From: a virus
Lineage: Duplodnaviria; Heunggongvirae; Uroviricota; Caudoviricetes
Direction: 5' to 3' (one strand)
Virus record (IMG/VR): IMGVR_UViG_2681813146_000008
Coordinates: 1 to 46,757 of that record
DNA length: 46,757 nucleotides
Part shown: piece by piece, positions 697 to 45,104 of the stretch
How the letters are laid out: each line of letters opens with the position of its first letter
Position numbering within the stretch: the stretch's first letter is position 1
Position numbers and translations under genes: made by a program
Notes under the pieces: model-generated
Seen by the model: the letters and a program-made list of their open reading frames with translations, nothing else
What the model was told of the DNA's origin: nothing
The model's database searches: none

Positions 697-1059
697 GGGG
701 CTGATTCTGGATTCGACGGGATTTGCGAAACCCAAGGTGCATGCCGAGGGGCGGTTGGCCTCGTAAAAAGCCGCAAAAAATAGTCGCAAACGACGAAAAC
801 TACGCTTTAGCAGCTTAATAACCTGCTTAGAGCCCTCTCTCCCTAGCCTCCGCTCTTAGGACGGGGATCAAGAGAGGTCAAACCCAAAAGAGATCGCGTG
901 GAAGCCCTGCCTGGGGTTGAAGCGTTAAAACTTAATCAGGCTAGTTTGTTAGTGGCGTGTCCGTCCGCAGCTGGCAAGCGAATGTAAAGACTGACTAAGC
1001 ATGTAGTACCGAGGATGTAGGAATTTCGGACGCGGGTTCAACTCCCGCCAGCTCCACCA
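697..1059 (+). ncRNA. ssrA: tmRNA (SsrA), 363 nt
   Basis: Starts GGGGCTGATTCTGGATTCGACGGG, contains the tag reading frame gcaaacgacgaaaactacgctttagcagcttaa (ANDENYALAA-stop, about 786-818) and ends with the tRNA-like acceptor arm GGGTTCAACTCCCGCCAGCTCCACCA. Confidence 0.96.
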
Positions 1060-1062
1060 AAT
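1015..1062 (+). repeat. Prophage att repeat, ssrA-proximal copy (48 bp, covers the ssrA 3' end)
   Basis: atgtaggaatttcggacgcgggttcaactcccgccagctccaccaaat, identical to 33268-33315. Confidence 0.9.
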
Positions 1063-1069
1063 AAATCAA

Positions 1070-1100
1070 GGGGTTACGTGAAAGCGTAGCCCCTTTTTCT
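1070..1100 (+). terminator. Intrinsic terminator downstream of ssrA
   Basis: GC hairpin (ggggttacg / cgtagcccc) followed by a T5 run. Confidence 0.6.
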
Positions 1101-1182
1101 TAGGTAGTGGCGGCAAAATGGCGACAGACTTTTGCGTCCATCTTGCCTGTCGCCATCTTGAAATCATGCAAAGAGGTTTGAC

Positions 1183-1665
1183 ATGGAAGAACTTCACTTT
1201 GTTTACATCAATGCAAATGGTCGTATCGGTGTTCACTCTATACAGAGCATCAGTTATAGCGAAAATCATATACAGGGCATTTGTAAGAACACCGATCGAA
1301 TAAAAACCTTCCGAAAAGACCGCATTCTTAAACAGTACGATTCACCAGAACAAGCCATTCAGGAATGCACATCATTCCTCCCCGAAAACTACTCACATCT
1401 CACTAAGCAGTCTGGTCCGAAAAAAAATACATTCGATGTGTGTTTCACCGGATTTAAGAAAGCAGATAAAGAAAGATTGGTTGATAAGGCGAATGAACAA
1501 GGATTAACGGTAAGAACCTCTGTAACCCAAAGCCTTCAGATGCTCTGTTGCGGTTACAATGCAGGCCCATCAAAAGTATCGGCAGCCAGGATGAAAGGCA
1601 CAATCATCATAGATGAGCCTGGCTTTATACATTTTCTTGAAACGGGTGAGATCCCAGATGAATAA
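1183..1665 (+). CDS. Hypothetical protein with WYL-like N-terminal motif and BRCT-like C-terminal domain
   Basis: 160-aa ORF with AGAGG RBS; RTFRxDRI-type motif (KTFRKDRI); C-terminal pattern resembles the LigA BRCT domain. AT-rich relative to neighbours. Confidence 0.6.
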   Translation: MEELHFVYINANGRIGVHSIQSISYSENHIQGICKNTDRIKTFRKDRILKQYDSPEQAIQECTSFLPENYSHLTKQSGPKKNTFDVCFTGFKKADKERLVDKANEQGLTVRTSVTQSLQMLCCGYNAGPSKVSAARMKGTIIIDEPGFIHFLETGEIPDE

Positions 1666-1691
1666 AAACCTGCCGTAGCAGGTTCTCTTTC

Positions 1692-1910
1692 TCAAAAATT
1701 CATATGCCCCTGACCACCTGGCAATGGATGTGGAGGAGCAGTAGCAATCAGTGCGGGTGTCACAATAAACCGGACCACTGTTTCATGGGTAACAAAAGTG
1801 CTCCCGCAGTTAATATTTTGGCACTGGCAGTAACGCTCTTTGGTGCTTTCAGTTACTTGAAAACTGCTCCTTGTGTGTGCCGCATGACCACACTTTGGAC
1901 AATTCATCAT
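1692..1910 (-). CDS. ogr: Ogr/Delta-family zinc-finger late transcription activator
   Basis: C-x2-C...C-x4-C motif (CPKCGHAAHTRSS...CQCQNINCGSTF) closely matching P2 Ogr; start set at the internal Met to give 72 aa; located after gene D next to the att site as in P2. Confidence 0.9.
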   Translation of the reverse strand: MMNCPKCGHAAHTRSSFQVTESTKERYCQCQNINCGSTFVTHETVVRFIVTPALIATAPPHPLPGGQGHMNF

Positions 1911-1978
1911 ATCCAGATCCCTACCTTTGCTATCAGAATTATTGTAATGATACACAAAATATCAATATTGAGAACGCT

Positions 1979-3079
1979 TTATTCCATTTCAAGATCATCA
2001 ATCTTCACTTCGAGTTCAATACTGGTTGTAAAACCGTTATCCGGGCTGACGGTATGTGTCAGAGTCGTAATGGTCCATTCCGCATCATCTATCGGCTGTT
2101 TAAAACCACTGACCTTCACAGGCATTTCCGTGTAGAGATCTGCCCGCCCTTCTGCCAGTTGTAGCGAAAATGACGCAACGCCGCGTTGCAGGCGTTCCCA
2201 CTGCATTTTCGCCGCTCGTTCGGCGTTGCTCCGGTTGGCATAAGTGCGATTAAGTACCAGCACGTTTTCATCCGTACCCACCAGGTAATCGCCCTGCTTC
2301 GCTTCCGGCTCTTTCTTCTGCTTCTTAGTTCTGCGCTTACGCTTCACCGTGGTGCTTTCTTTCTTCGCAGGTTCGCGGGTATGCAACCAGCTGGCAATTA
2401 CGCCCGTGTAGGCTCCGCGATCTGCCAGGGTAAATCGGTGACTGTCGCCGTCCTTGCGTGTGATAGTGATCACTGGCAGAGGTTTACCAGTGGCGCTTTT
2501 GCCCTGCCCCTGCCGGATGAATAACAGATTGCCATTTTTCACCGACGCGATGGCACCGTACTGTCGCGCCAGCCGCATCAGAAAACTGCCGTCACTCTCA
2601 TTAGTCTGGTCTATATGCTCCACGGGCTTATCCGACAGGTCTTTACCCAGTGCCATCTTCAGCTTGTGCCGCGCGGCTATTTCCTTCACCACTTCCCCGA
2701 CGGTGGTCTTATGCCACGATTTTTCACGGCGGGTATTCAGCGTTTCCCGAAAATCAGCACTTCGCGCCCGGATAGTCAGGCGGTCCGGTGCGCCAGTGTG
2801 TTCAATCTCGTCCACTGTGAATGCCCCTTTAGGGAAAAGCGGCTGCCCCTTCCAGCCCAGCGCCAGCGTAATGACCGCACCACGGCGCGGCAGCACGATT
2901 TTTCCGTCAGCGTCATCCAGCTCCAGATCAAGCTGGTCCGCTTCAAAGCCCCGGTTATCCGTCAGCGTCAGACTCATCAGGCGGTTATCCAGCACAGTGG
3001 TGATATCCCTGCCCTCAATACTGATGCTGAATGCGGGAGTTTTGTTGCCTTTGTTAAGCAGTTCAGAGCTGAAATTCAC
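1979..3079 (-). CDS. D: Tail protein D (late control gene D family)
   Basis: 366 aa; position after U-T and before ogr; recognised P2 gpD-like sequence. Confidence 0.88.
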   Translation of the reverse strand: MNFSSELLNKGNKTPAFSISIEGRDITTVLDNRLMSLTLTDNRGFEADQLDLELDDADGKIVLPRRGAVITLALGWKGQPLFPKGAFTVDEIEHTGAPDRLTIRARSADFRETLNTRREKSWHKTTVGEVVKEIAARHKLKMALGKDLSDKPVEHIDQTNESDGSFLMRLARQYGAIASVKNGNLLFIRQGQGKSATGKPLPVITITRKDGDSHRFTLADRGAYTGVIASWLHTREPAKKESTTVKRKRRTKKQKKEPEAKQGDYLVGTDENVLVLNRTYANRSNAERAAKMQWERLQRGVASFSLQLAEGRADLYTEMPVKVSGFKQPIDDAEWTITTLTHTVSPDNGFTTSIELEVKIDDLEME

Positions 3080-3561
3080 GACAGCAGCCCTCCCACCGTT
3101 TTACTGATATCGCTTAAGGCAGACGTTGCCGTTTCCTGCAGATTATTCAGTTGCGCACTGAGATCACCGAACATATCGGACAGGGATTCATCCACCCGTT
3201 TGAGCGACAGGGTGAACTCAATCCGGCGCGGCATACCGTCGCGGAAAAACTCCGTTTTAGTCTGATTCAGTCCCTCAATCACATACATGCCATAAATCGT
3301 GCCGCTGCCTTCAATCAGGGGCCATGCTTTCCCCTGTTCTGCCATCTGCTCCAGTGCCAGCAACGACAGCCTGCCACCTGTTATCTCCGGCATAAGAACA
3401 CCGGAAAGCGTCAGCATGTCGTTGTCCGGTCCCAGAAACTGCGTGGACGGACGTCGGTTTACCCGGCTGTTTGCCGCATGTCGCCAGCTGCGTTGATACT
3501 GCAGCTCCTGATACGGCACGGTGCGCAGCATAAACACGTACAATCCCAGCACCATCATCAT
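3076..3561 (-). CDS. U: Tail protein U
   Basis: 161 aa, overlaps D start and T stop; P2 gpU-like. Confidence 0.88.
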   Translation of the reverse strand: MMMVLGLYVFMLRTVPYQELQYQRSWRHAANSRVNRRPSTQFLGPDNDMLTLSGVLMPEITGGRLSLLALEQMAEQGKAWPLIEGSGTIYGMYVIEGLNQTKTEFFRDGMPRRIEFTLSLKRVDESLSDMFGDLSAQLNNLQETATSALSDISKTVGGLLS

Positions 3562-6500
3562 GCGTCGTATCCCCCCTGATCGCTGTAGTTACTCCTGGCT
3601 TTTGCTTTCAGCCTGCGTTCACGTTCATCAAGCTGGCGGGCCACCTCCCGCGCAATATCCTGCGCACTTTGTCCTGGCTGCGTCTGAATGATGATCTGCA
3701 TCGGTGCCTCAATCCGTTGAACGGGCGGCACAGTGGCTGCACGACTCACCATCGCTTCGCCGCCTTTCGCGGGAAGTGCCAAAGGGTGCAACGGTGGAAG
3801 CTCTGCAGGCGCGGCAGCAACGCCCATCATTCCGGCAACAACGGCAGCCAGTGCAGCTGTATTTCTCCGGCTGGTCACATTTGCCGGGCCGTTAACAATT
3901 TCCGGCCCGTTTTCACCGACGATGCCAAACTGCCCGCGCGGGATATACCCGCCGCTGTCATACATTCCCGCAAAGCCATATCCCCATGATGGAAAACCAC
4001 CCGATGGCATCATCACTTTACCGTCTGCATTCACCGTCGCAGGTTGCTGACGCGTCACGCTTTCCGGCAGTTTTGCCTTTGCGGCCTCTTTACTGACAAT
4101 GCCGAGCTTCTCCAGCAACCAGGAAACGCCGGATTTCAGGGAGTCCAGCGGATGCATGACCATATTCAGCCCTTCCGCCAGTGCCTCCCCGAATCGTCGC
4201 CCCATTGCCGCTGCACTCTGCAGTTCGGCAGAGGTCGACTTAACGGGCGTAAGCAGATCAGTAAACCAGCCCCACAGCGCCTGTACTTTGTCGCCAATCC
4301 ACTGAAACACAGGCTTAAGTGGTTCGAATGCAGCACTGACGGGACCTGCCGCCGCTTTGAATCCTTCCACCACGCCACCGAGAAATGCGGTGATGGGTTG
4401 CCAGTATTTCCAGACAACCAGCGCCACGCCCGCCAGTGCAGTAACCACAAGACCTATCGGACTGAGCAGAGCACCTAACAGACCAGATACGGCATACAGA
4501 GCAACGCGCAGCATCGCCAGCGGACCAGATGCCAGCACTCGCAGCACCGCGCCTGCGGCGGTCAGTCCACCGCGCAGTACCGCCAGTGGATTCATAAACA
4601 TCACAGCAACCGCACGTAAACCGGATAATCCAGACCGCAACAGTGCAACTGGCGCACCTGCTACAGTTTTCAGGACATTTCCCGTCAGTGATGCCGTACG
4701 GCGCAAAGATGACAACGGCGCAGTAAGTAAACCCGCAGCATTGCCCGATGAAGCAAGCCCGCGTCGCAGCAGTGCCAGTGGAGCGCCAGCCAGCCAGGAC
4801 AACGCGCTGCTGGTTCGTGTTACTGCTGCCGTAACGGAAGGTAACGTTTTGATACCCAGCACAGAGAATCCCAGACGGATCACTGCCAGCGGCCCCAGCA
4901 CTGCAGCCAGCGCCACCGCTAAGGTGCCGAGGCCGACGGTAACCGCAGCCACAACGGCCGACGCTTTCATCAGTGTGCCTGTCAGTTCCGGGTTAGCTTC
5001 CACCCAGCGACGTAACGCCCCCGTGACGCTTTTCACCGTGTACAGAATATCCATCAGCGGCTGGCGCAGCGTTTCGCCCAGGCTGCTGAAGGTGTTCTGC
5101 GCTCCGGTTTTGACCAGCAACCACTGCGCAGAAAGTGAATCCTTGTTAATGTCGGATTCTTTCTGCATGGAGCCGAGCGCATCATTGCCCGCTGTCAGTT
5201 TTAACTGACGCTGCAGTTCCGGCAGGTTATTTGCCAGTTTCGCCGCGTCATCGCCAAACTCTTTACCAAACAACATAGTCATGGCAGACAGGCGCTTGTC
5301 CTGCGGCAGCGCGTTTACCTTCTCCAGCACGCGCTGGATGGTTCCCATCGCATCCTTCGTCATCTGCTTTTCAATCACTTCAGGATTGAGTTTCAGCAGA
5401 TTCATCCCTTCAAAGAAACTCTTGCTTTGCATGGTGGCAATGGACAATTCACGCACCATCGCGTTTGCTGCACTGGCTGCAACCTCCGGCGCAGCGCCCA
5501 GTGTCAGGAAGGTGGAACCCAGCGCCGCCGCTTTACGATAATCCAGACGGTCAGCCACACCGCCCAGACGTTGCATCACATCAATGATGTCTGCCCCTTT
5601 CGACATGGCGTTATCATCCAGATAGTTCAGCGCATCACCGAGCTGTTCAATATTGCGGGTGGGGATTTTGTAGAGCTGGGCGATTTTCCCCAGACTTTCT
5701 GACAGTTCATCCGCTGGCAGCTCAAAGGCTGTTGCCGCCTTTGCTGCCGTACTGGCGAAGGCCAGCAGGTCACGTTTCTGATCTTCCCAGCTGTCGTCAG
5801 GGTTTGCGACGTTCATGCGCGCACCACCTTCAACCAGTGCAGCGAAGTCCACCGCACCGTTTTCCATCGGCAACTGTTCGCTGGCAGCCTTGATGGCATC
5901 CTGCATTTGATAAAAACGTGCAGTGCGGTTGCCATTATCGTCACGCAGACCATTGACCTGCTTTGCCACACCTTTCATGGCATCTTCCATGCTGGTATAG
6001 CTTTTTACTGCCGCCATCACTGGCGCACCCATTGCCAGCCCTGCAGCCGTGGTGGTGGCTCCGGCACCTGCAATACGATCACGCACCTCCAGCGAGCTGG
6101 CATAACTGGCACGCGCTGCATTCATCCTGCGCTGAGCTTCCCCCAGTCGCTTCAGCCGCGCCTCCTGTTTCGAAAGTTCCTGGTTATAACGTGATGTTTC
6201 ACGGGCTAAACGGGCAGTTGCTCCCGCATCGTCTTTCGCAGAAATTCCCGCCCGGTACAGTTCAGCACGCACAAGCGCCGTCTGCTGCTGCAGCTTTTTC
6301 TGGCGTTCTTCCAGGCGCTGAACAGCCAGCCGTTGACGGCCCAGAGCAACAACCTGACGTTGCGAAGGCGGCCCCATCGCTCCCAGTTCCTGACTGAGCA
6401 AATTTGCACGCTGGCGGGCATAGTTCAGCCTGTCGCCTAATTTCTGATTTTCTGCCTGCAGCTTTCGGAAGCTGTCCAGACTGCTCCCGGCCTGATCAAG

Positions 6501-6635
6501 CTGCTTTATTGCATCGCGGGATTTTTTGACAGCAGCAGCCAGTTCTCTTGAACTGGCCTGCGCAGATCGAAATGGGCGGGTGAGCTTGTCAACCGCATTA
6601 AGAATGACCTGCAGACGCAGGTTGTTATCACTCAT
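3558..6635 (-). CDS. T: Tail tape measure protein T
   Basis: 1025-aa Ala/Leu-rich coiled-coil and hydrophobic segments typical of tape measure proteins; P2 gene order E-E'-T-U-D. Confidence 0.9.
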   Translation of the reverse strand: MSDNNLRLQVILNAVDKLTRPFRSAQASSRELAAAVKKSRDAIKQLDQAGSSLDSFRKLQAENQKLGDRLNYARQRANLLSQELGAMGPPSQRQVVALGRQRLAVQRLEERQKKLQQQTALVRAELYRAGISAKDDAGATARLARETSRYNQELSKQEARLKRLGEAQRRMNAARASYASSLEVRDRIAGAGATTTAAGLAMGAPVMAAVKSYTSMEDAMKGVAKQVNGLRDDNGNRTARFYQMQDAIKAASEQLPMENGAVDFAALVEGGARMNVANPDDSWEDQKRDLLAFASTAAKAATAFELPADELSESLGKIAQLYKIPTRNIEQLGDALNYLDDNAMSKGADIIDVMQRLGGVADRLDYRKAAALGSTFLTLGAAPEVAASAANAMVRELSIATMQSKSFFEGMNLLKLNPEVIEKQMTKDAMGTIQRVLEKVNALPQDKRLSAMTMLFGKEFGDDAAKLANNLPELQRQLKLTAGNDALGSMQKESDINKDSLSAQWLLVKTGAQNTFSSLGETLRQPLMDILYTVKSVTGALRRWVEANPELTGTLMKASAVVAAVTVGLGTLAVALAAVLGPLAVIRLGFSVLGIKTLPSVTAAVTRTSSALSWLAGAPLALLRRGLASSGNAAGLLTAPLSSLRRTASLTGNVLKTVAGAPVALLRSGLSGLRAVAVMFMNPLAVLRGGLTAAGAVLRVLASGPLAMLRVALYAVSGLLGALLSPIGLVVTALAGVALVVWKYWQPITAFLGGVVEGFKAAAGPVSAAFEPLKPVFQWIGDKVQALWGWFTDLLTPVKSTSAELQSAAAMGRRFGEALAEGLNMVMHPLDSLKSGVSWLLEKLGIVSKEAAKAKLPESVTRQQPATVNADGKVMMPSGGFPSWGYGFAGMYDSGGYIPRGQFGIVGENGPEIVNGPANVTSRRNTAALAAVVAGMMGVAAAPAELPPLHPLALPAKGGEAMVSRAATVPPVQRIEAPMQIIIQTQPGQSAQDIAREVARQLDERERRLKAKARSNYSDQGGYDA

Positions 6636-7064
6636 CGTTGGCCCCGCTTCTCTGAATCGCTTTATACCGCCATTCCAGCACTTCGGTCAGCGGCATAACG
6701 TCAGTAACGGATGGCGGCCAGTGAAAAATGGTGGCGATATCTGCCACCAGATCGTCAACCGTCAGGCTGTCGGTAAACCGGCAAGCACCGACTTCTTCAA
6801 CAAAAAAGTGACAACCTCAACCGACATGGCAGTGAGATCTGCCGGGTCCATCTCTGCAATTTCCTGTGCAGTCAGTGCCGGACTGGAGATGCGGGGGATC
6901 ACGGTCATCATCGCGTTTACATCCATATCCATAATGGCCTGCAGGCGTGTACCGCGCAGCGCACCGGACTGCGGTTTACGCAGCACAATTTCGGTGATTT
7001 CTGTTTTACCGCGCTTGATGGGGGTATCCAGTTGAATGGTCTTTTCAGTCTGCTTATCGCTCAT
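6628..7064 (-). CDS. Tail assembly chaperone E+E' fusion via programmed -1 frameshift
   Basis: Slippery T6G on the minus strand at 6801-6807; the -1 frame stays open for 57 codons to a TGA at 6628-6630, overlapping the T start; predicted fusion about 145 aa (P2 E+E' is about 142 aa). Confidence 0.7.
6762..7064 (-). CDS. E: Tail assembly chaperone E
   Basis: 100-aa ORF between FII and T; contains the slippery heptamer TTTTTTG near its 3' end. Confidence 0.88.
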   Translation of the reverse strand: MSDKQTEKTIQLDTPIKRGKTEITEIVLRKPQSGALRGTRLQAIMDMDVNAMMTVIPRISSPALTAQEIAEMDPADLTAMSVEVVTFLLKKSVLAGLPTA

Positions 7065-7118
7065 TTTGCTGTCCTGTCAATTGGGTTCTGGCGCGGTATC
7101 CCGCGCCGTTCAGATATA

Positions 7119-7634
7119 TCAGAGGCCGAGGGCGTTGCGGTGCGCTTCCATCAGGTCCACACCGTCCACAATTTCCACCATGTTGATAAGGTCCACTTCA
7201 TAGAGCACCTCACCATTGATGGTCAGCTTCGCGTAGCTGTTGGTACTGGTCACTTTGGTGGTGTTGCTTTCGCCCGTCTTCCACTCGCCGGAATCCACTT
7301 CTTTGTGACGTCCACGCACGACAAGCTCCACGGGCTGCACTTCCCCGGTATCGTCACGCTGAATAGAGCCGGTAAAGCGCAGCTGGATGCCATCCACCGT
7401 GGCTTTACCCATCTGTTTAAACAGCAGCAATTCAGTACCACCAATGGAAAATTCTGTGTCCAGCGCACTGTCATCAAGCCCCAGATCCACATCCACCGCA
7501 CCCGGCATTCCGCCGCCGCGATACTTCTCATATTTGCGGGTAAATTTCGGCAGCGTCAGCGACTCAACGATCCCCTGCCAGTTGTTCCCGTCGTTAAACA
7601 GGTTCAAGTGTTTTAATTTGCGTGGTAAAGCCAT
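7119..7634 (-). CDS. FII: Tail tube protein FII
   Basis: 171 aa, P2 gpFII-like, downstream of sheath. Confidence 0.9.
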   Translation of the reverse strand: MALPRKLKHLNLFNDGNNWQGIVESLTLPKFTRKYEKYRGGGMPGAVDVDLGLDDSALDTEFSIGGTELLLFKQMGKATVDGIQLRFTGSIQRDDTGEVQPVELVVRGRHKEVDSGEWKTGESNTTKVTSTNSYAKLTINGEVLYEVDLINMVEIVDGVDLMEAHRNALGL

Positions 7635-7643
7635 GTTGTCCCC

Positions 7644-8816
7644 TTACGCGCTGACCTGGCTGGCGAAATTCACCAGGTACTGATCGGTGATGCGCTGGCG
7701 CAGCATCAGATTTTCAAGTGGCGGCACTGGCGTGTAGTCATAGTCGATGGTGAGTTTTCCGGCTTTCAGCGTGTCTTTGTCGTTCACCGACTCATCCAGC
7801 CAGCAATCACCACCAATGAGATAGCCCTGACTGACCAGGCTGCGCATTTTGGCGCGGATACCTTCGATAATGTCGCGGGCCAGCGACGGGTTAAGCGGTT
7901 TATCCACCGCCCACATGTGTGCTTCTGCCATCGTGTCCATCAGCACCTGCGCCGTGCGGGTGTAGTTTTCGAAGGCAAAGAGCGGGTCATCACTCAGGCA
8001 GCGGGAACCCCAGAAGCGGAAACCGTCCTTGCGCACAAGCGTGGTGACGTCGTTCTGGTTCAGCAGACCTGCATCGGTTGCCGGGTCCTGCAGATCCCAG
8101 AACACATCTGCAGAAATTCCGGTGACACCGTTCACGCCCACGTTGGACAGGCTTTTGTGCCATCCGGTCTGCTCGTCAATTTTGGCGCGCAGACCAAGCG
8201 CACGGGCGGTGGCATATGCCGTTGCTTCGGCATTCAGCACCGTGTCCCAGCCAGTAAAGTCAGGCCAGATCAGCATCCCTTCGCGCTGGCTGAAGTTTTC
8301 GCGGTAAGTGATCGCCTCCTGCACTGTCTTGCAGCCATACGCTGACAGGTAAGCAAATCCACGCAGGCTTTGCGCCACGCTCAGCAACTCAGTAGCTACC
8401 GCCTTGGTGTCGTGGCCTGGCACGCCGAGAATGCGCGGTTTAACGCCGAGCTGTGACTGGGCAGATAACAGGGCTTTCATACCTGTTTTTTTACCTTCAG
8501 CAGTCACTGCGCCGATGATATTGGTCGTGGTTTCGTCTTCCGTTTCACCCTGCGGCACACGCACAACAATGGTCACGGGTTTTGCCTGGTCAGCGATGGC
8601 ATCCAGCGAACGGGCCAGAGTACCGGACTCACCCGCTTTACCGCTGGCAGTCAGCACATCAGTGATCAGCACGGGTTTATTAAGAGGAAACATTTTTGCA
8701 TCGGCATCATCGCCCGTGCAGACCATACCCACGATGGCGGTGCTCACCGTGGTAATAGATCGGGTGCCTTCGTTGACTTCAACAACGCGCACCCCGTGGT
8801 GGTAATCCTGAGCCAT
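7644..8816 (-). CDS. FI: Contractile tail sheath protein FI
   Basis: 390 aa, P2 gpFI-like. Confidence 0.92.
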
Positions 8817-8958: not shown

Positions 8959-9531
8959 TCAGGGGGATTCATTGATCTTATTTGCCGGAAATTTTCTATA
9001 AATGGTAGAAACGCCTACATCAAAAATCAGTGCAATACGCTGTCTTGATTCTCCGGCCTCGAGTAAACGCCCAATCTGTGCCCACTGTTCGGTGGTCAAC
9101 TTAGGACGGCGTCCACCTACTCTGCCTTTGGTACGAGCTGCAGCCAGCCCTGCCCTGGTACGTTCAACTATCAGTTCGCGTTCCATTTCAGCCAGGGCAC
9201 CCATGACATGAAAAAAGAAACGGCCCATTGGGGTACTGGTATCAATACTGTCAGTCAGGCTTCTGAAATTCACACCACGCTGGCGCAACTCTTCTATCAG
9301 CGTAACAAGATGCCGCATACTGCGCCCCAACCTGTCCAGCTTCCAGACAACCAGCGTGTCTCCTGCCGATAGTGTCCTGAGTAGTTTTTTCAGCCCCGGT
9401 CTGTCGGACTTAGTGCCACTGATTTTGTCCTCAAAAATCCGCTCACATCCCGCGCAGTTCAGTGCATTACGTTGCAAATCGGTGTTCTGGTCATTTGTTG
9501 ACACGCGTACATAGCCAATAAGCATGATCAT
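8959..9531 (-). CDS. Serine recombinase, DNA invertase (Gin/Hin/Pin/Cin family)
   Basis: 190 aa; N-terminal catalytic motif YVRVSTNDQ and C-terminal HTH; adjacent to inverted tail-fibre segments. Confidence 0.9.
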   Translation of the reverse strand: MIMLIGYVRVSTNDQNTDLQRNALNCAGCERIFEDKISGTKSDRPGLKKLLRTLSAGDTLVVWKLDRLGRSMRHLVTLIEELRQRGVNFRSLTDSIDTSTPMGRFFFHVMGALAEMERELIVERTRAGLAAARTKGRVGGRRPKLTTEQWAQIGRLLEAGESRQRIALIFDVGVSTIYRKFPANKINESP

Positions 9532-9580
9532 CCCCCTGAATAAAAACCGGAGATGATGCCAGTTAGCTGTTACCTCTGCA

Positions 9581-9606
9581 TTTTCTTAAACGTTGGTTTG
9601 GGAGAA
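9581..9606. repeat. Invertase crossover site, left (gix/hix-like, 12-2-12)
   Basis: ttttcttaaacg-tt-ggtttgggagaa; the 14 bp 9593-9606 are a perfect inverted copy of 11415-11428. Confidence 0.75.
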
Positions 9607-33427: not shown

Positions 33428-33473
33428 GTATACGTTTAGGTATACGGTAGGATGTATACCTAAAAGCGTATAC
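33428..33473. repeat. Four GTATAC-core repeats upstream of the satellite int (candidate Int/Vis arm-type sites)
   Basis: GGTATACG-type motifs at about 33428, 33440, 33454 and 33468, two in each orientation; two more copies at 45003-45020 near the other att end. Confidence 0.5.
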
Positions 33474-33496
33474 CAATTCATGAAGGAGCGGCCACA

Positions 33497-34684: not shown

Positions 34685-34698
34685 GGCTTTCGCCCTAT
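34681..34698. terminator. Bidirectional hairpin between convergent int and the 913-aa gene
   Basis: atagggc-tttc-gccctat. Confidence 0.4.
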
Positions 34699-34708
34699 GA
34701 TTTAATAA

Positions 34709-37450: not shown

Positions 37451-37570
37451 TTATACACTCCTTATCTCATATCCTTTTGACAAGTAAGATATCAACCTCG
37501 AGTTTCAGAAACCAGTATCTTGCGCATATTTACGACATCAAAACTTTTGGTTATGCACCCACAGCGCGCA

Positions 37571-37589
37571 GTGCTTTCCCCGCCTCGCC
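37571..37589 (-). other. cos site of the P4-like satellite (19-nt cohesive-end sequence)
   Basis: Minus strand reads GGCGAGGCGGGGAAAGCAC, an exact match to the P2/P4 cohesive end. Confidence 0.8.
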
Positions 37590-37692
37590 CGCCCGCTTTG
37601 CGGGGCGGTTTTAATACAGTTGCACTGACACGCTCAGACCGCGCCGGGAATGGTGCGGTCTGCAGAAAATGAGGCAGGAAAACGCATGCAAA

Positions 37693-37723
37693 GCCATGCA
37701 CCTTATCGATGCATGGCTTTTTT
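37693..37723. terminator. Hairpin plus T-run between psu and cos
   Basis: gccatgca-N9-tgcatggc followed by tttttt on the plus strand. Confidence 0.4.
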
Positions 37724-37753
37724 CAGTAAAAACGGGAGGATTTTCGGGGAATT

Positions 37754-38326
37754 TTACACAGACTGACGTGATGCCAGTTGCGCACTTTTACGCGAAAAAA
37801 TCATGTTCTGCGCAGGGGTGAATTTTTCACGGCTGTCATCCACCGAAGCCGCGTCAGGCCTGAATCCGATGGTCGTTAAAATGTCACTATCCTGTGCGGA
37901 ATAATTAATTTTTTCCCCCTTCGCAAGCCAGGACAGAAGGGCTTCACGCAGGGCATCTGTGGCACGCTGTATGGCACAGTTTCGGGCAATGGCCGTCAGC
38001 TCACTGTAGCCCATCAGCTCCGGTGCCAGTGCCGCCGCCAGTGCTGTGCCGTGCTGCTGCATAAAATCATTCAGCCGGTCGCGGATGCTGATGTGCTGAA
38101 CGGCTTCATGCGAACGAATATAACGACCGGCGGCCTGATTCACCTGCCATTTTCTGACTTCGATAATATTGCGTAATTCGTCCAGGCGACTGACGTTTCT
38201 GCCTTCTCCTGACTGAAGCCGCAGATATTCCTGTTCGGCCGCAGCCAGCTCATTTTTGCGTTGCAGCCATGCTGCTTTGTTATTCTGACAGGTGTCAAAG
38301 GCCTGCTGTAAGGCTGTGCTTTCCAT
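37754..38326 (-). CDS. psu: Polarity suppression protein Psu (Rho antagonist, capsid decoration)
   Basis: 190 aa, sequence recognised as P4 Psu (MESTALQQAFDTCQNNKAAWLQRK...). Confidence 0.9.
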   Translation of the reverse strand: MESTALQQAFDTCQNNKAAWLQRKNELAAAEQEYLRLQSGEGRNVSRLDELRNIIEVRKWQVNQAAGRYIRSHEAVQHISIRDRLNDFMQQHGTALAAALAPELMGYSELTAIARNCAIQRATDALREALLSWLAKGEKINYSAQDSDILTTIGFRPDAASVDDSREKFTPAQNMIFSRKSAQLASRQSV

Positions 38327-38399
38327 CGTTATCTCTTTCTCATCATGCTGAAGAATAAAAATACGGTGTGCGGCGACGGCCGGTGTTAACCGGCAGCCC

Positions 38400-38900
38400 T
38401 CATTCCAGACGCAGCGAATATGATTGTGTTTTTAACCGTACTGGCGGCAGTTCCTGTTTTTCATGCAGGCTTTCTGCAAGCTCGTCCGGCGTGACCGGGC
38501 GGACAATGAAGCGGTTGATGGTCTGAAGCGTTTTAAACACCAGACCACAGCCCGGATCCGTGCACACATAAAAACGCTCGGTGACTTCCTGAGACAGACG
38601 CCGCGATGTTCTTGACAGCGCAAGGCCTTTACATCTCCGACAACAATATCCGGTAACAAGCATTCTTTTCGGGCGCTTCATGCTGCCGGAGGCTGACGTC
38701 AGTGAATCGCGGTATCTCTGTTTGCCTGAAATGTATTCCATTCCTGAATCTTTACAGTCAGAGAAAAAGCTTTCACTCGCTTCAAATGTCGCAGAGCAAT
38801 AAATATTCCGGCACTGTGCAATCATTATCTTGGTGCCATCGTCCATGAAATGTGCGCAACGGGTGTGAGCAACATGTCCACACGACGGGCAGTAAATCAT
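38400..38900 (-). CDS. delta: Delta late-gene transactivator (tandem Ogr-like zinc fingers)
   Basis: 166 aa with two Ogr-type zinc-finger units (CPSCGHVAHTR... and ...CCRRCKG...CTDPGCG). Confidence 0.9.
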   Translation of the reverse strand: MIYCPSCGHVAHTRCAHFMDDGTKIMIAQCRNIYCSATFEASESFFSDCKDSGMEYISGKQRYRDSLTSASGSMKRPKRMLVTGYCCRRCKGLALSRTSRRLSQEVTERFYVCTDPGCGLVFKTLQTINRFIVRPVTPDELAESLHEKQELPPVRLKTQSYSLRLE

Positions 38901-39631
38901 GACAGCAGTCCTCTGGCCTTAAGCTCTGCTCCCTGCTGGTCTATTTTGTCCTGCCACACCTTGCGCTGTGCCGGTGTGCCTGCCACCTCATAATCCATGT
39001 GCGGGAGTGTTGCCGCTGACAGTCCGGTCAGCCGGAGAACCGGCTCGCCGGTGAGGCTGATTTGCATCTGTTTTATTTTCTGTTCCAGCGATGATTTCAC
39101 CTGCTGCATGACAGCCTTATCGGGTGCGACGTAGCCCTGATGCCCGGTGGTGTTGGCGAGCGGATTTTCCTGTACCAGAATGCTCAGATGCATTGCCCGG
39201 ACAAGCGCCTCACAGGTTTCATTCAGGGCGTGTTCCAGCTCATGCTCTGCATACAGACTCAGAAGGTGATGATGTGCCTTCCGGTAGGCGGTGGCCGTGC
39301 TGTCACACGCCCCTTTCAGGCGTTCGCGTTCAAAATTCAGCACCACGGCCAGATTGTCATATTCCTGTACCAGCTCCCGGCGTGCCACGCGCTCAATGTG
39401 GCGCTGTTTCAGCTCGTCGCTCAGGACACCACCGGCTGCACGAAAGGCCGTGCGCCAGTCGTCAGCGTCGTTTCCGTCGGCCTGCGCCAGCGCATTTTTT
39501 TCCTGCTCTGCCCGTTCAATGGCCGTGACGGTCTCATCCATCAGTCGGGCGTTCTCAAGGTGGGCGGCTCTGGCCTTTTCCAGTTGTGCCAGTGCGGGTT
39601 GCAGATATTCAGGGATGGTGTTGTCAGACAT
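38897..39631 (-). CDS. sid: Sid capsid size determination (external scaffold) protein
   Basis: Start set at MSDNTIPEYL (AGGAG RBS), 244 aa as in P4 Sid; the track ORF extends to 39697. Confidence 0.85.
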   Translation of the reverse strand: MSDNTIPEYLQPALAQLEKARAAHLENARLMDETVTAIERAEQEKNALAQADGNDADDWRTAFRAAGGVLSDELKQRHIERVARRELVQEYDNLAVVLNFERERLKGACDSTATAYRKAHHHLLSLYAEHELEHALNETCEALVRAMHLSILVQENPLANTTGHQGYVAPDKAVMQQVKSSLEQKIKQMQISLTGEPVLRLTGLSAATLPHMDYEVAGTPAQRKVWQDKIDQQGAELKARGLLS

Positions 39632-39665
39632 TTTCCGGCTCCTCGTCACTTCAGGTTGAGAAAAT

Positions 39666-39721
39666 TGTGACGTACACCGGACAACAACACGACGCATTGC
39701 AGATGTGCCAGCCCTGACACA
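39666..39721. promoter_or_regulatory. Psid late promoter with two Delta/Ogr dyads (TGT-N12-ACA)
   Basis: TGTGACGTACACCGGACA (39666-39683) and TGTGCCAGCCCTGACACA (39704-39721), centres about 38 bp apart, 35-90 nt upstream of the sid start. Confidence 0.6.
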
Positions 39722-39801
39722 GGAGACTCATCCTCACACCGGCAAGCCAGGAAAAGGTCGCTGGAAAAAACGGCTTACTGTTTATTTTTTTTATATTTTA
39801 C

Positions 39802-39905
39802 TGTTCACCTCTGTTCACCATAAGAAAAAAGATAAGTAATACAGTAAGTTAAAGGGTGAACAATCGCAGTAATGACTGTTCACCGTCTGTTCACCACTGT
39901 TCACC
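39802..39905. repeat. Iteron cluster (six TGTTCACC octamers), candidate satellite ori
   Basis: Octamers at about 39802, 39812, 39877, 39888, 39898 (direct) and 39855 (inverted), mostly at 10-11 bp spacing. Confidence 0.7.
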
Positions 39906-40064
39906 CGTTGATGGGCTTTTTGTGCTGTTTATTACTGTTTGTTTTTATTAATTCGCCGGGAATGAATAAGAAAAAACGATTTGTATTTCACTATAAAAAT
40001 TACGAATTGCTTTAAGTGGCTTTAAATGACTTTAAGTGGAGATGAACAAAAAATACACAAGCAT

Positions 40065-40082
40065 TGTAAGGCTGCCGGAACA
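40065..40082. promoter_or_regulatory. Delta/Ogr-type dyad upstream of the alpha operon (PLL-like late promoter)
   Basis: TGTAAGGCTGCCGGAACA about 110 nt upstream of the first + strand gene. Confidence 0.4.
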
Positions 40083-40184
40083 AATCCCCCCTGTTGCGTC
40101 TGCTGAAAATATTCACAAAATAAAGCGCTACCCGAAGCCGGACGGACTTATCCGGTGCTGTATGGACATTAACGAGGTAGCCCG

Positions 40185-40451
40185 ATGCAAGCTGTTTTTT
40201 CTTCCCCGTCTCCCGCCCCTGTGACGCCACTGATGCCGCTGCCGGACATCACACAGGAGCGTTTTTTACGTCTTCCGGAAGTGATGCACCTGTGCGGCCT
40301 GTCACGCTCGACCATCTATGAACTCATCCGTAAGGGGGAATTTCCGCCGCAGGTGAGTCTTGGCGGTAAAAATGTGGCCTGGCTGCACTCTGAAGTCACC
40401 GCATGGATGGCCGGGCGCATTGCCGGACGCAAACGGGGGTACGACGCATGA
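40185..40451 (+). CDS. AlpA/Vis-family small HTH regulator
   Basis: 88-aa ORF with GAGG RBS; RLPEV...[11 protein letters not shown]...V.W pattern typical of AlpA-family regulators. Confidence 0.7.
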
Positions 40452-41047
40452 TGATGCCCGCTCTGCAAAAACTCCCTTTTTCTGGCTTGCCTTTTTCCGG
40501 CATTTGCGGATATAGTTTTTCCGCTGCCGCAAAATCGGCAGCCGGGCGTGAGAACCCGAGCAATTCACAGGCGACATATGACGCGCCACGCGTCTTTTTT
40601 TGTGTCGCAATCAATGCCACAGAGCGCCAGATTATGGTGTGGTGTGTGGTCAGTCGTGCAGATGGCATTCCGTGCATCCTGCCCGCGTCCGCTCATTATG
40701 CCGCAGAGTCAATGGTAGCTCAGGCGGGGCAGCCTCCGGGCTGGCCGGTATCCTGTGAAGCCGGTATTCTCACCCCCGTCTGGGCTATCGCCATCGAGCG
40801 TGAGAACTCCGGCGATAGCGTTATTTGCTATTCACAGGAGGCTGCCATCATGGCTACAACCCTTACCCCCTCACACCCTGAATTTGTCTTTGTGTTTGCG
40901 GCTGTCCGTCGCGCAGACCGTCATCCCCGTATCTGTATGCTTCGCACCGTCGCCGGTGATGAACGCAGCGCCCGCCGTTCCCTTGTCCGTGACTATGTGC
41001 TCTCCCTTGCTGCCCGTCTGCCGGTGATGGGGGTGTCCCGTGCGTAA
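40448..41047 (+). CDS. Hypothetical protein (199 aa)
   Basis: ATG overlapping the upstream stop; length matches a P4 alpha-operon ORF; no recognisable motif. Confidence 0.45.
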
Positions 41048-41327
41048 TAAAAAAGCCCCTCAGACCGTCTCAGCGCGTCATGACGCCCGTGAACACCTCA
41101 GCATTGAGGCTTACCATAAGCTCAACCGCGCCAGCGCCGTATCCCAGTTTGTTGGGGGTGATTTGATTCACCGTGAACTCTCCGGCCTGCATCAGCTCTA
41201 CATTCCGCATATTTTCAGCTACCTGAATGAAGATATTGATTTTGTGCTGAATGAGCTGAAAGCCAAAGGCCTGTGCCGCGATTTTCTCGCCCAGCAGAAA
41301 GACCGGGGAGACAGGACGCATGTTTGA
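41040..41327 (+). CDS. Hypothetical protein (95 aa; position of P4 epsilon)
   Basis: 95-aa ORF in the operon leading to alpha; the epsilon assignment is positional only. Confidence 0.5.
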
Positions 41328-41775
41328 TTTTCCCCAGCCCGGTGAGATTTACCGTTCTGCCGGTTTTCCCGATGTGGCCGTGGTCGGCATTCTGGAAGAC
41401 GGTATTCCGTGGGAAATGCCGTACCGCTGCCCGGACATTGTCTGGAATCCGTACCGCCGTAAATTCAGTATCCTTGTGCGTATCCTCGCTGACGGGCGCA
41501 CCACAGACATCCCGCTGGGGCGTTTTCTGCGGGAATTTACCTGTGACCGTCCTGACCTGTTCAAACGCAGCCCCGTAAACCGGCATGCGGTACTGAAAGA
41601 AATGGCCGGAGACCCGGAATTACAGAAATGGCGGGAGAAATATCTGGATATTTACCCGCAGGACCCTGTTCCGGTCAGCCGGGCGGCACCGGTGGCGCGG
41701 GAATGGCGGGAAATTCCCCGCACGGAGCCTGACCCGGAAACCACCCCGGATAACAGTTACCGCAATTATCTGTAA
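41320..41775 (+). CDS. Hypothetical protein (151 aa)
   Basis: Overlapping start with the previous ORF; same length as the P4 ORF preceding alpha. Confidence 0.55.
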   Translation: MFDFPQPGEIYRSAGFPDVAVVGILEDGIPWEMPYRCPDIVWNPYRRKFSILVRILADGRTTDIPLGRFLREFTCDRPDLFKRSPVNRHAVLKEMAGDPELQKWREKYLDIYPQDPVPVSRAAPVAREWREIPRTEPDPETTPDNSYRNYL

Positions 41776-41910
41776 TTAAAAAACGACACCCGAAAAATTA
41801 AATGTGCGTATTCGCGCAGGGATACGCACGTCTTCAGGAGACGCAGATATGCCTTATCAGTTAATGCAACCGGCACGGAATGCAGTCATCTGTCACAGGG
41901 AGGAAAGCAA

Positions 41911-42231
41911 ATGAAAACACCCTTACCGCCCGTCTTACGCGCAGCCCTTTACCGTCGCGCTGTCGCCTGTGCCTGGCTGACCGTGTGCGAACGTCAGCAC
42001 CGCTACCCGCATCTCACCCTTGAGTCACTGGAGGCGGCCATCGCCGCTGAGCTGGAGGGCTTTTATCTGCGCCAGCACGGTGAGGAAAAAGGGCGTCAGA
42101 TAGCCTGTGCCCTGCTGGAAGATTTAATGGAATCCGGCCCCCTGAAGGCCGCGCCGTCGCTGTCCTTTCTCGGGCTGGTTGTGATGGATGAACTCTGTGC
42201 CCGTCACATAAAAGCGCCGGTACTGCACTGA
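41911..42231 (+). CDS. Hypothetical protein (106 aa)
   Basis: ORF immediately upstream of alpha. Confidence 0.55.
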
Positions 42232-42245
42232 AGGAGAACAACACC

Positions 42246-44579
42246 ATGAAAATGAACGTAACCGCCACCGTCAGCCATGCGCTCGGCCACTGGCCGCGTA
42301 TTCTCCCGGCGCTGGGGATTCAGGTGCTGAAGAACCGTCATCAGCCCTGTCCGGTCTGTGGCGGGAGTGACCGCTTCCGTTTTGATGACAGGGAGGGGCG
42401 CGGCACCTGGTACTGCAATCAGTGTGGTGCCGGTGACGGCCTGAAACTGGTTGAAAAGGTGTTTGGTGTTTCCCCGTCCGACGCGGCCGCAAAGGTGGCT
42501 GCCGTGACCGGCAGCCTGCCACCGGCTGACCCGGCAGTGACGACCGCCGCCGTTGCTGAAACAGACGCTGCCCGGAAGAACGCCGCCGCACTGGCACAAA
42601 CCCTGATGGCGAAAACCTGTCCCGGAACCGGTAACGCCTACCTGACCCGCAAGGGCTTTCCCGGCCGGGAATGCCGGATGCTGACCGGCACACACAGAGC
42701 CGGTGGCGTGAGCTGGCGCGCCGGTGACCTTGTGGTGCCACTGTATGACGACAGCGGCGAACTGGTTAACCTTCAGTTAATCAGTGCTGACGGCCGTAAG
42801 CGCACCCTGAAAGGCGGACAGGTCAGGGGCACCTGTCACACCCTTGAAGGACAGAATCAGGCAGGAAAACGTCTGTGGATAGCGGAGGGATACGCGACCG
42901 CACTTACCGTGCATCACCTGACCGGTGAAACGGTGATGGTGGCGCTTTCTTCCGTGAACCTCCTTTCTCTGGCCAGCCTTGCCCGACAGAAGTATCCGGC
43001 CTGTCAGATTGTCCTTGCCGCAGACCGTGACCTCAGCGGTGACGGCCAGACAAAAGCCGCCGCAGCCGCAGATGCGTGTGAGGGCGTTGTTGCCCTGCCG
43101 CCGGTCTTCGGTGACTGGAATGATGCCTTCACGCAGTACGGCGGGGAGGCCACCCGTAAGGCCATTTACGATGCCATCCGGCCACCGGCTGAAAGCCCGT
43201 TCGACACCATGAGCGAAGCGGAGTTTTCCGCCATGAGTACCAGCGAAAAGGCCATGCGTATCTATGAGCATTACGGCGAGGCGCTCGCGGTCGATGCCAA
43301 CGGCCAGCTTCTGTCCCGTTATGAAAATGGTGTCTGGAAGGTGCTGCCACCACAGGACTTTGCCCGGGATGTGGCCGGGCTGTTTCAGCGGCTGCGCGCG
43401 CCGTTCTCCTCCGGGAAGGTGGCCTCCGTGGTGGACACCCTGAAGCTGATTATTCCGCAACAGGAAGCCCCCTCCCGCCGCCTGATTGGCTTTCGTAACG
43501 GCGTGCTCGACACGCAGAACGGCACGTTCCACCCGCACAGTCCGTCACACTGGATGCGCACCCTGTGCGATGTGGATTTCACCCCGCCGGTGGAAGGTGA
43601 AACGCTGGAAACCCACGCTCCCGCGTTCTGGCGCTGGCTTGACCGTGCCGCCGGTGGCCGTGCGGAAAAACGCGACGTGATTCTGGCCGCACTGTTTATG
43701 GTGCTGGCAAACCGCTACGACTGGCAGCTCTTTCTGGAGGTGACCGGTCCCGGCGGCAGCGGCAAAAGTATCATGGCCGAAATAGCCACCCTGCTGGCTG
43801 GTGAGGATAACGCCACGTCGGCCACCATCGAGACGCTGGAATCCCCGCGTGAACGTGCCGCGTTAACTGGCTTCTCACTGATACGCCTGCCGGACCAGGA
43901 AAAATGGAGCGGCGACGGAGCCGGACTCAAGGCCATCACCGGCGGCGATGCGGTGTCCGTTGACCCGAAATACCGGGATGCGTACTCCACGCACATCCCG
44001 GCGGTAATTCTGGCCGTGAACAATAACCCGATGCGCTTCACCGACCGCAGCGGCGGCGTGTCACGCCGGCGGGTGATTATTCACTTCCCGGAACAGATAG
44101 CCCCGCAGGAGCGCGACCCGCAGCTTAAGGACAAAATCACCCGCGAGCTGGCGGTCATCGTGCGTCACCTGATGCAGAAGTTCAGCGACCCGATGCTCGC
44201 CCGGTCACTGCTTCAGTCCCAGCAGAACTCAGACGAGGCACTGAACATCAAACGGGATGCCGACCCGACGTTTGATTTTATCGGCTATCTGGAAACCCTG
44301 CCGCAGACCAGCGGCATGTATATGGGGAACGCCAGTATCATCCCGCGTAATTACCGTAAATACCTCTATCACGCCTATCTGGCCTACATGGAGGCAAACG
44401 GCTACCGGAATGTACTCAGTCTGAAAATGTTCGGGCTGGGGCTGCCGGTGATGCTGAAGGAATACGGACTGAATTACGAGAAGCGCCATACCAAACAGGG
44501 GATACAGACCAACCTGACGCTGAAAGAGGAAAGCTACGGCGACTGGCTGCCAAAATGTGACGACCCTGCAACAACCTGA
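42246..44579 (+). CDS. alpha: Alpha primase-helicase replication protein
   Basis: 777 aa; N-terminal zinc-binding primase motif CPVCGGSDRFRFDD...YCNQCG; Walker A GPGGSGKS in the helicase region. Confidence 0.92.
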   Translation: MKMNVTATVSHALGHWPRILPALGIQVLKNRHQPCPVCGGSDRFRFDDREGRGTWYCNQCGAGDGLKLVEKVFGVSPSDAAAKVAAVTGSLPPADPAVTTAAVAETDAARKNAAALAQTLMAKTCPGTGNAYLTRKGFPGRECRMLTGTHRAGGVSWRAGDLVVPLYDDSGELVNLQLISADGRKRTLKGGQVRGTCHTLEGQNQAGKRLWIAEGYATALTVHHLTGETVMVALSSVNLLSLASLARQKYPACQIVLAADRDLSGDGQTKAAAAADACEGVVALPPVFGDWNDAFTQYGGEATRKAIYDAIRPPAESPFDTMSEAEFSAMSTSEKAMRIYEHYGEALAVDANGQLLSRYENGVWKVLPPQDFARDVAGLFQRLRAPFSSGKVASVVDTLKLIIPQQEAPSRRLIGFRNGVLDTQNGTFHPHSPSHWMRTLCDVDFTPPVEGETLETHAPAFWRWLDRAAGGRAEKRDVILAALFMVLANRYDWQLFLEVTGPGGSGKSIMAEIATLLAGEDNATSATIETLESPRERAALTGFSLIRLPDQEKWSGDGAGLKAITGGDAVSVDPKYRDAYSTHIPAVILAVNNNPMRFTDRSGGVSRRRVIIHFPEQIAPQERDPQLKDKITRELAVIVRHLMQKFSDPMLARSLLQSQQNSDEALNIKRDADPTFDFIGYLETLPQTSGMYMGNASIIPRNYRKYLYHAYLAYMEANGYRNVLSLKMFGLGLPVMLKEYGLNYEKRHTKQGIQTNLTLKEESYGDWLPKCDDPATT

Positions 44580-44595
44580 CCATCATGACTCATCT

Positions 44596-44619
44596 GACCG
44601 GCATCTGCCGGTCTTTTTT
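44596..44619 (+). terminator. Intrinsic terminator after alpha
   Basis: Perfect hairpin gaccggca-tc-tgccggtc followed by tttttt. Confidence 0.7.
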
Positions 44620-44633
44620 CATCCCTGAATCCC

Positions 44634-44938
44634 CCGAAGGTGAACAATCCAGTGTTCACCCTTCACCGTATGTTCACCCGTTATCACACTGAAATTAAAA
44701 GAGAAAAACGAAAGGTGAACAGTGTGAACAATCAAATCAAAAAAAACTTTTTTTCTTCCTGTGTGATTTTCAGTGCGGAGGATTAATCGCCGGTATGAGT
44801 CACACCGGCAGAATGCCGGAGGTGAAGAATCGAATGTTCACCCTTCACCCATTATTTACCACCTATCCAACTGAAATAAAAGGAAAAAACAGAAAGGTGA
44901 ACAGTGTGAACAGTTCTTCCGAAAAAAAATTTTTTTCC
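44634..44938. repeat. crr-like region: two ~120-bp imperfect direct repeats, each with TGTTCACC/GGTGAACA octamers
   Basis: Unit A about 44634-44757 and unit B about 44816-44938; octamers at about 44639, 44653, 44671, 44714 and 44835, 44896 plus degenerate copies; each unit ends in an A-run/T-run. Confidence 0.7.
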
Positions 44939-45082
44939 TGTACGATATAGCATCAATCCAAGTAAAAATGCGCTTTCATTTCACATTAACTTACAGCCAT
45001 TGGTATACGATTAGGTATACGCACAAAAACTGAATTAAACAAAATCATTAAAAATCAAAGCAATACAATATTTATTCAAACT

Positions 45083-45104
45083 CCGCCAGCTCCACCAATC
45101 ATGA
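45083..45104 (+). repeat. Degenerate att repeat at the right end of the satellite
   Basis: ccgccagctccaccaa-tcatga matches the ssrA 3' end with two single-base deletions. Confidence 0.6.

Follow-up and report, generated by a model that had tools for sequence, protein, structure and literature searches.

A Fels-2/SEN8-type prophage and a P4-like satellite in tandem at ssrA: probable neighbours with cos sites of different lineages

Of all integration targets of genomic islands, the tmRNA gene is the most strongly enriched, and 125 tandem arrays have been described among 3,919 islands; in such arrays every member brings along an integrase and a target-gene fragment of its own (PMC4383910). A P4-like element adjoining a large prophage has also been noted before (PMC8628076). 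The 46,757-bp IMG/VR record IMGVR_UViG_2681813146_000008 (positions 1 to 46,757, the whole stretch analysed here, hereafter the window) contains such an arrangement. Behind ssrA, the tmRNA gene, which here is that of E. coli, a P2-family prophage of 32,253 bp (one att copy included) is followed by a P4-like satellite of 11,785 bp (core to core), and the att repeats, the gene content and the relatives of both elements agree with this order, as a preliminary description of the window had proposed. Each of the two has its own integrase and its own ssrA fragment in the correct orientation (Table 1), like the members of the known tDNA arrays. The difference is that the members here are a potential helper and a satellite, a pairing which is itself recurrent. 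The two integrases share 24% identity over 131 aa, which reflects the catalytic fold alone. Taken together, the two elements are probably independent of each other, with cos sites of distinct lineages, and stand as neighbours at ssrA rather than as a matched helper-satellite pair. Both elements and the ssrA tandem are of known, ordinary kinds, and the locus changes no general picture.

The satellite is, by its alignment to P4 (NC_001609), a variant of P4 in which the integration module has been swapped and another gene occupies the hotspot. It matches positions 4291-11624 of P4 at 98.2% nucleotide identity, over a span from crr to the right cos end that takes in alpha, orf106, orf151, epsilon, the cI region, alpA, sid, delta and psu. 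On the right, the P4 record stops at position 37590 of the window, abutting the satellite cos 19-mer, and the gene lengths and gene order are those of P4. In contrast, P4 positions 1-4290, with the leuX-specific int/attP and gop-beta-cII, have given way to an integrase of the IntA type (37% identity to P4 Int), an att site at ssrA whose core is 13 bp long, and a nuclease-STAND gene of 913 aa. This integrase fits the IntA-type model from end to end and targets the ssrA 3' end, like that of CP4-57 in E. coli K-12, but the element behind it is a complete P4 satellite and not CP4-57. The seven core components by which de Sousa and Rocha define P4-like satellites (int, psu, delta, sid, an alpA-type regulator, epsilon/ash and alpha) were co-localised in P4 order according to PHROG and Pfam. 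No structural genes were found among the open reading frames (ORFs) of 33316-45084, and the satellite cos lies between psu and the 913-aa gene, as the definition requires.

The prophage is, by its gene content, a complete Fels-2/SEN8-type P2-family phage with a full head, tail and lysis set. It is 96.3% identical to Escherichia phage 500465-1 (NC_049342) over 94% of 1063-25000, which includes the late region, and many Klebsiella and Salmonella relatives also match. The synteny is of the P2 type: Q and P are divergent from O-N-M-L, the lysis genes, tail genes, D and ogr follow, and A, cox, CI and int lie across cos. This gene order is common to P2 and 186/PSP3, as are an Ogr-type activator, late promoters with TGT-N12-ACA sites and a 19-nt cos with conserved flanks, and the CI and SOS control of the prophage is that of 186. 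Fels-2, SEN8 and 500465-1 share with the prophage the synteny, a cos-adjacent DinI/Tum-like module and near-identical cos flanks, and Fels-2 also lies at ssrA, in Salmonella LT2. Their accessory genes are different at three sites, namely the hotspot near cos, the gap between int and att (406 aa in the prophage) and the gap between att and ogr (160 aa in the prophage), and a regional comparison with Fels-2 gives only ~83% identity for the cos/DinI region. The head and packaging proteins are just 48–64% identical to those of P2 (Q 60%, P 64%, O 48%, N 60%, M 50%), whereas P2 and 186 share 73–89%.

The cos sites of the two elements differ. The preliminary description had read the prophage and satellite 19-mers as GGCGTGGCGGGGATACGAG and GGCGAGGCGGGGAAAGCAC, with differences at 5 of 19 positions, and this reading held on re-inspection, each 19-mer occurring once in the window. 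The satellite 19-mer is identical to that of P2 and P4. The prophage 19-mer is of the Felsduovirus type: it is 19/19 identical to the cos of SEN8 (NC_047753), which was assigned by annotation (PMC5427200), and it is also present in Fels-2 (NC_010463) and in the prophage of E. coli F95. The SEN8 record begins with this 19-mer, and its last base aligns to position 24282 of the window. With the flanks included, the prophage cos agrees with those of Fels-2 and SEN8 at 59–61 of 64 positions. A shared core cos signal, as in a cognate pair, was not found between prophage and satellite, which match at 14 of the 19 positions (the mismatches being at 5, 14, 16, 17 and 19) and at 47 of the 64, compared with 55 of 64 for P2 and P4 and 54 for 186 and P4. 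The prophage 19-mer has 4 differences from that of 186 and 5 from that of P2/P4. Phage phiCTX, with the cohesive end annotated in its record, has a cos ending in GGACGAC.

The cos types were then surveyed in IMG/VR by three scans, each with one exact cos 19-mer, which listed 120, 120 and 109 contigs for the types ending in ATACGAG (the prophage type), AAAGCAC (the satellite type) and AGAGCAT, respectively. P4-like genes were found on none of the 120 ATACGAG contigs listed, on 21 of the 120 AAAGCAC contigs listed and on 85 of the 109 AGAGCAT contigs. The large terminase gpP on ATACGAG contigs was 84–100% identical to that of this prophage and 62–65% to that of P2. The values were 62–65% and 85–100% for AAAGCAC, and 61–63% and 82–84% for AGAGCAT. 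Phage Q or A was present on 103 of the 120 ATACGAG contigs listed, and the AGAGCAT contigs included 17 with phage genes only and 2 phage-satellite tandems. When satellites were sampled by anchoring on Psu, all 75 with a readable cos ended in AGCA(C/T), comprising 60 AAAGCAC, 8 AGAGCAT and 7 minor variants, and six satellites from other genera had AGAGCAT, ATAGCAT or AAAGCAC. Thus no satellite with the Fels-2-type cos was found among the 120 IMG/VR contigs listed, the 80 Psu-anchored loci and the 6 loci from other genera. As judged from the cos and gpP sequences, the 19-mer type tracks the terminase clade, and satellites carry only the P2/186-clade types among those sampled. The two cos sites of the window differ because they belong to different cos/terminase lineages, the Fels-2 clade and the P2/186 clade. 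Such a rule linking cos type and terminase clade was not found stated in the literature searched, nor was any paper on a Fels-2/Felsduovirus phage as a P4 helper or on the matching of cos types between satellite and helper.

One satellite in these scans, on IMGVR_UViG_2778261640_000001, has a Psu 99% identical to that of the window but an AGAGCAT cos; in P4-like satellites, therefore, cos type and psu lineage reassort separately.

The preliminary description had suggested that the prophage is perhaps not the cognate packaging helper of the satellite. This is plausible, given that the cos type tracks the terminase clade and that none of the satellites sampled has the Fels-2-type cos, and the prophage as a neighbour is better supported than the prophage as a helper; it is unproven, since other helper interfaces are conserved. 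The opposite case is that the Fels-2-type prophage works as a helper: its terminase would recognise cos by the conserved flanks together with the first 13 bases, tolerating the five differences, Delta and Ogr would cross-activate, and Sid would direct small capsids. We consider this unlikely, though several features of the locus weigh in its favour and against the prophage being only a neighbour. At cos, the flanks of the prophage site carry TGCAT.AAAACC...AAGCGGGC on the left and GCGCGC on the right, as do the measured cos sites of P2, 186 and P4, and in the 35 bp left of the 19-mer prophage and satellite agree at 27 of 35 positions, versus 26 of 35 for P2 and 186; the cut sites of the prophage cos would be placed by analogy with the known ones. 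Phages 186 and PSP3, which are reportedly classical P4 helpers, tolerate differences from P4 at 2 of 19 positions (the PSP3 cos is annotated as identical to that of 186), so a helper need not have exactly the same 19-mer. Both elements have TGT-N12-ACA sites, in the phage at 20854, 14947 and 8893 (the O/P, V and FI promoters) and in the satellite at the positions of P4 Psid and PLL; the window has 15 matches in total, and these 5 of them lie within ~1.4 kb of the intergenic DNA examined and stand for motif presence alone. Through them the phage could probably switch on the satellite late genes via Ogr and be switched on by Delta. The prophage gpN keeps four (M184, Y207, A217 and L221) of the five sir loci that define Sid responsiveness, the remaining one, D206, being changed to E (PMC7552001 for the five loci), and the capsid protein may be responsive to Sid. 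The IMG/VR scans, which list no more than 120 contigs per cos type, and the Psu-anchored sample, which consists mostly of P4-proper satellites, could miss a rare satellite with a Fels-2-type cos. Finally, the tandem pairing recurs, and the phage family, being in ~24% of complete E. coli genomes, would offer satellites a plentiful resource.

Other observations weigh against the helper case. Satellite genes and the ATACGAG cos were not seen together among the 75 readable Psu-anchored satellites and the 120 contigs listed, and the satellites match all three P2/186-clade cos types. The small terminase is only 50% identical to P2 gpM. Efficient cutting and packaging of the satellite cos by the prophage terminase is doubtful. 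Residues 185-200 of gpN, the sir loop, are diverged and contain a 1-aa deletion. Epsilon acts on P2 C; the prophage repressor is of the 186 CI type and not of the epsilon-sensitive P2 C type, so epsilon should not derepress it. Adjacency needs no functional cause, as the same phage family is also found beside unrelated ssrA islands. A wider proposal is that Fels-2-type phages cannot be pirated by P4-like satellites at all, because the ATACGAG terminase/cos lineage does not process sites ending in AGCA(C/T). The ssrA tandems would then be mismatched neighbours, and the divergence would set, or have evolved to set, the boundary of the helper range. We put this forward tentatively, as an idea that could well be wrong. 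If confirmed by experiment, the cos/terminase rule would define which P2-like prophages mobilise P4-like satellites together with their defence genes.

The order of arrival was resolved by comparison with genomes that have the satellite only. MCJCHV-1 (NZ_CP030111) corresponds to the window minus 1063-33267 (32,205 bp, the unique part of the prophage), with 0 mismatches or gaps over 1,062 + 13,490 bp (~14.5 kb). The satellite-only junction at ssrA was also found, at 100% identity, in dozens of other genomes, and the genome background of the window fits the MCJCHV-1 lineage. The phage alone with these flanks was not found among 5,426 complete E. coli genomes, the collection used for all counts of complete genomes below. 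Because MCJCHV-1 matches the window once 1063-33267 is removed, the satellite is placed as the first resident and the phage insertion as precise and very recent. The preliminary description had proposed the same order, but from the quality of the repeats, and that argument fails; the final structure alone could not reveal the order. An insertion of the phage first and of the satellite later, into the displaced distal ssrA fragment, would yield an identical final structure by site-specific recombination; the satellite-only state with both flanks, together with the lack of any complete genome with the phage alone between them, makes this very improbable. A false join across the 48-bp repeat is hardly credible either. 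The source assembly is indeed scaffold-level (the window is 100% identical to GCA_001030585.1 scaffold KQ087938.1 over 21,221 bp), but the window contains no N, the repeat is just 48 bp long, the middle junction has precisely the hybrid structure predicted by integration, and an equal architecture occurs in complete genomes. A further reading, also improbable though less so, is that the prophage or the satellite is a defective remnant; the question of a helper would then not arise. Prophage decay is common; however, the P4 gene lengths are all kept (psu 190, delta 166, sid 244, epsilon 95 and alpha 777), the phage has the full P2-type gene set and is 96% identical to a sequenced phage, and the lack of mismatches in the flanks means that the insertion is very recent. 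The locus is thus a clean natural test case, in which a precisely dated phage insertion, without SNPs relative to the pre-insertion state, places a common P2-family lineage beside a near-canonical P4.

Three copies of the ssrA 3' end mark the borders of the two elements. The perfect 48-bp repeat reported before (1015-1062 and 33268-33315) was confirmed by re-reading and by the MCJCHV-1 comparison, in which the two alignments (window 1-1062 and 33268-46757) overlap by exactly these 48 bp. It comprises the last 45 bases of ssrA and 3 bases downstream; the preceding base differs (G at 1014 versus T at 33267), and no such repeat is expected by chance. The ssrA 3' 48 bp are currently provided by the phage attL. 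The third copy, described earlier as a decayed one at 45083-45104, is real but shorter, with an exact core of only 13 bp, GCCAGCTCCACCA (45085-45097), and imperfect similarity on either side (caaactcc / atcatgat). It is not decayed. An empty site, reconstructed by joining ssrA...CCACCA to ATCATGATTGGACGG, was found at 100% identity over all 420 bases in the best-matching E. coli genomes, and at least 80% of this query was covered by one place in 2,525 of the 5,426 complete genomes. Because the empty site exists in this form in many genomes, the third copy is the ordinary, intact attR that belongs to an IntA-type integrase of the P4 family, and it consists of the satellite arm, the 13-bp core and native host DNA. 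Repeat decay was considered as a clock and rejected for this copy. How long a repeat is depends on the share of ssrA contained in each attP and not on age. With the full 48 bp of ssrA kept in the middle copy, both att pairs are intact, and either element would be expected to excise independently.

These observations show the following course. A P4 satellite first entered ssrA at its final 13 bp by means of a CP4-57 IntA-type integrase. A Fels-2/SEN8-type phage then used its own, unrelated tyrosine integrase to insert into the regenerated gene at the 3'-terminal 48 bp, duplicating these 48 bp and moving the satellite one position farther from ssrA. Each element retains its own att pair, integrase and cos. 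A G+C-rich hairpin with a T run was noticed directly past the ssrA CCA in each element, at 1066-1100 and 33346-33382 (read from the sequence, unscored); the tmRNA gene would gain a new terminator at each integration.

The pairing is not confined to the window. A junction query consisting of the phage right arm, att and the IntA-type int was at least 80% covered in 21 of the 5,426 complete genomes. In F95, D3 (NZ_CP010140), SCU-172 and L3_E36_ETEC, the integrase heads a complete P4-like satellite, and the cargo differs in both partners. The phage cos in these four tandems always ends in ATACGAG, and the satellite cos in AAAGCAC (SCU-172 and L3_E36_ETEC) or AGAGCAT (F95). For the D3 satellite, no cos matching GGCGNGGCGGGG was found within the locus, where the phage cos was the only one, and this satellite may carry a further cos variant. 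The D3 satellite (locus positions 14578-20656) has the order delta-psu-sid and a Hachimoji-like HamA/helicase cargo. In IMG/VR, 3 contigs have the order phage int, satellite int, psu, and 2 more have both cos types. The exact junction of the window is absent from the complete genomes, in which related junctions are present, because the 406-aa gene of the prophage has no nucleotide match in that collection. The CI-int module of the phage family was found in 1,316 of the complete genomes (~24%), and phages ~96% identical to this one, with an identical 406-aa gene, also adjoin unrelated ssrA islands or bare host DNA. Because the pairing recurs with mismatched cos sites wherever both were read, and the same phages lie beside other neighbours, the tandem points to a popular shared integration target and not to a special pair.

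Table 1. Features of the window, with positions, strand and the evidence for each assignment.
Feature	Position	Strand	Evidence or remark
smpB, left chromosomal flank	1-483	+	Annotated SmpB in E. coli genomes under 99.8–100% match
ssrA, tmRNA gene	697-1059	+	ARAGORN (single tmRNA gene called); tag peptide ANDENYALAA; intact through CCA
Prophage attL	1015-1062	+	48-bp identity block at ssrA 3' end
Accessory gene between attL and ogr, 160 aa	1183-1665	+	BRCT-like; phrog_2561 'DNA ligase'; weak PADLOC PDC-S48 match
Ogr-family late-gene activator	1692-1955	-	PF04606, E = 1.5e-20
Tail genes at positions of P2 D, U, T, E, FII, FI	1979-8816	-	ORF size and order; synteny with phage 500465-1
Serine invertase	8959-9531	-	PF00239 + PF02796; one of the invertase/fibre set
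Alternative tail-fibre tip	9553-9927	+	PF21882; opposite orientation to invertase
Tail-fibre assembly gene	9927-10370	+	PF02413
Small terminase subunit (gpM homologue)	18214-18864	-	phrog_74
Major capsid protein (gpN homologue)	18868-19926	-	
Large terminase (gpP homologue)	20918-22684	+	PHROG terminase; Pfam Terminase_6N/6C
Portal (gpQ homologue)	22681-23742	+	Pfam Phage_portal
120-aa ORF in Q-cos hotspot	23746-24108	+	PHROG: weakly similar to phosphoheptose isomerase and to polynucleotide kinase families
Prophage cos 19-mer	24263-24281	-	Felsduovirus type
SOS module: LexA-box-like CTGT-N8-ACAG (24967-24982), then small ORF and DinI/Tum-like gene (24485-24718)	24485-24982	-	phrog_189; PF06183
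Replication endonuclease (gpA homologue)	25078-27471	-	PF05840
Cox/Apl-like excisionase	29905-30147	-	phrog_575/6912
186-type CI repressor	30267-30899	+	PF07022 + PF16452
Phage tyrosine integrase	30901-31920	+	PF00589
Accessory gene between int and attR, 406 aa	31931-33151	+	phrog_7835, function unknown
Prophage attR	33268-33315	+	Also holds satellite attL core (33300-33312)
Satellite integrase, CP4-57 IntA type	33497-34684	+	NF007246, full length, 591 bits
Hotspot cargo, 913 aa	34709-37450	-	N-terminal Mrr-type nuclease (PF04471) and nSTAND1 NTPase domain (PF20703)
Satellite cos 19-mer	37571-37589	-	Identical to P2/P4
psu	37754-38326	-	PHROG; PF07455
delta	38400-38900	-	PHROG; PF04606
sid	38897-39631	-	PHROG; psu, delta and sid lie in the span with 98.2% nucleotide identity to P4
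TGT-N12-ACA activator site at P4 Psid position	39704-39721		
TGT-N12-ACA activator site at P4 PLL position	40065-40082		
alpA/vis-like gene	40185-40451	+	
Ash/Icd-region ORF	40448-41047	+	
epsilon	41040-41327	+	
orf151 and orf106	within 40185-44579	+	Between epsilon and alpha
alpha primase-helicase	42246-44579	+	
Satellite attR core, 13 bp	45085-45097	+	Native ssrA-distal host sequence to the right
glaH (csiD), right chromosomal flank	45780-46757	+	Match to E. coli genomes

The accessory genes of the prophage occupy three hotspots. A minor int-att defence hotspot is known in P2-like phages, and the 406-aa gene sits at the matching position (PMC13586616). The 406-aa protein had no Pfam, NCBIfam or PADLOC match. 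The exact protein was found in 176 blocks of public assemblies, and it lay directly downstream of this int in all 10 of the places examined. The Q-cos hotspot holds quite different genes in relatives of the prophage, namely TIR, DUF4145, GAPS4-like, GmrSD and AIPR genes. In the satellite, the 913-aa gene lies in the psu-int hotspot known from P4-like satellites (PMC9122126). The domain layout of its product is Avs-like, and an identical protein in MCJCHV-1 is labelled 'restriction endonuclease'. PADLOC assigned no defence system to this gene and made no system-level call for the cargo genes.

Two regulatory features of the prophage were also observed. The LexA-box-like site upstream of the cos-adjacent DinI/Tum-like gene suggests SOS induction as in 186. 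In the tail region, the invertase, the inverted alternative tail-fibre C-terminus and the assembly gene adjoin the expressed H and G genes (8959-10953), and the region looks like a candidate host-range switch of the Gin/Cin type.

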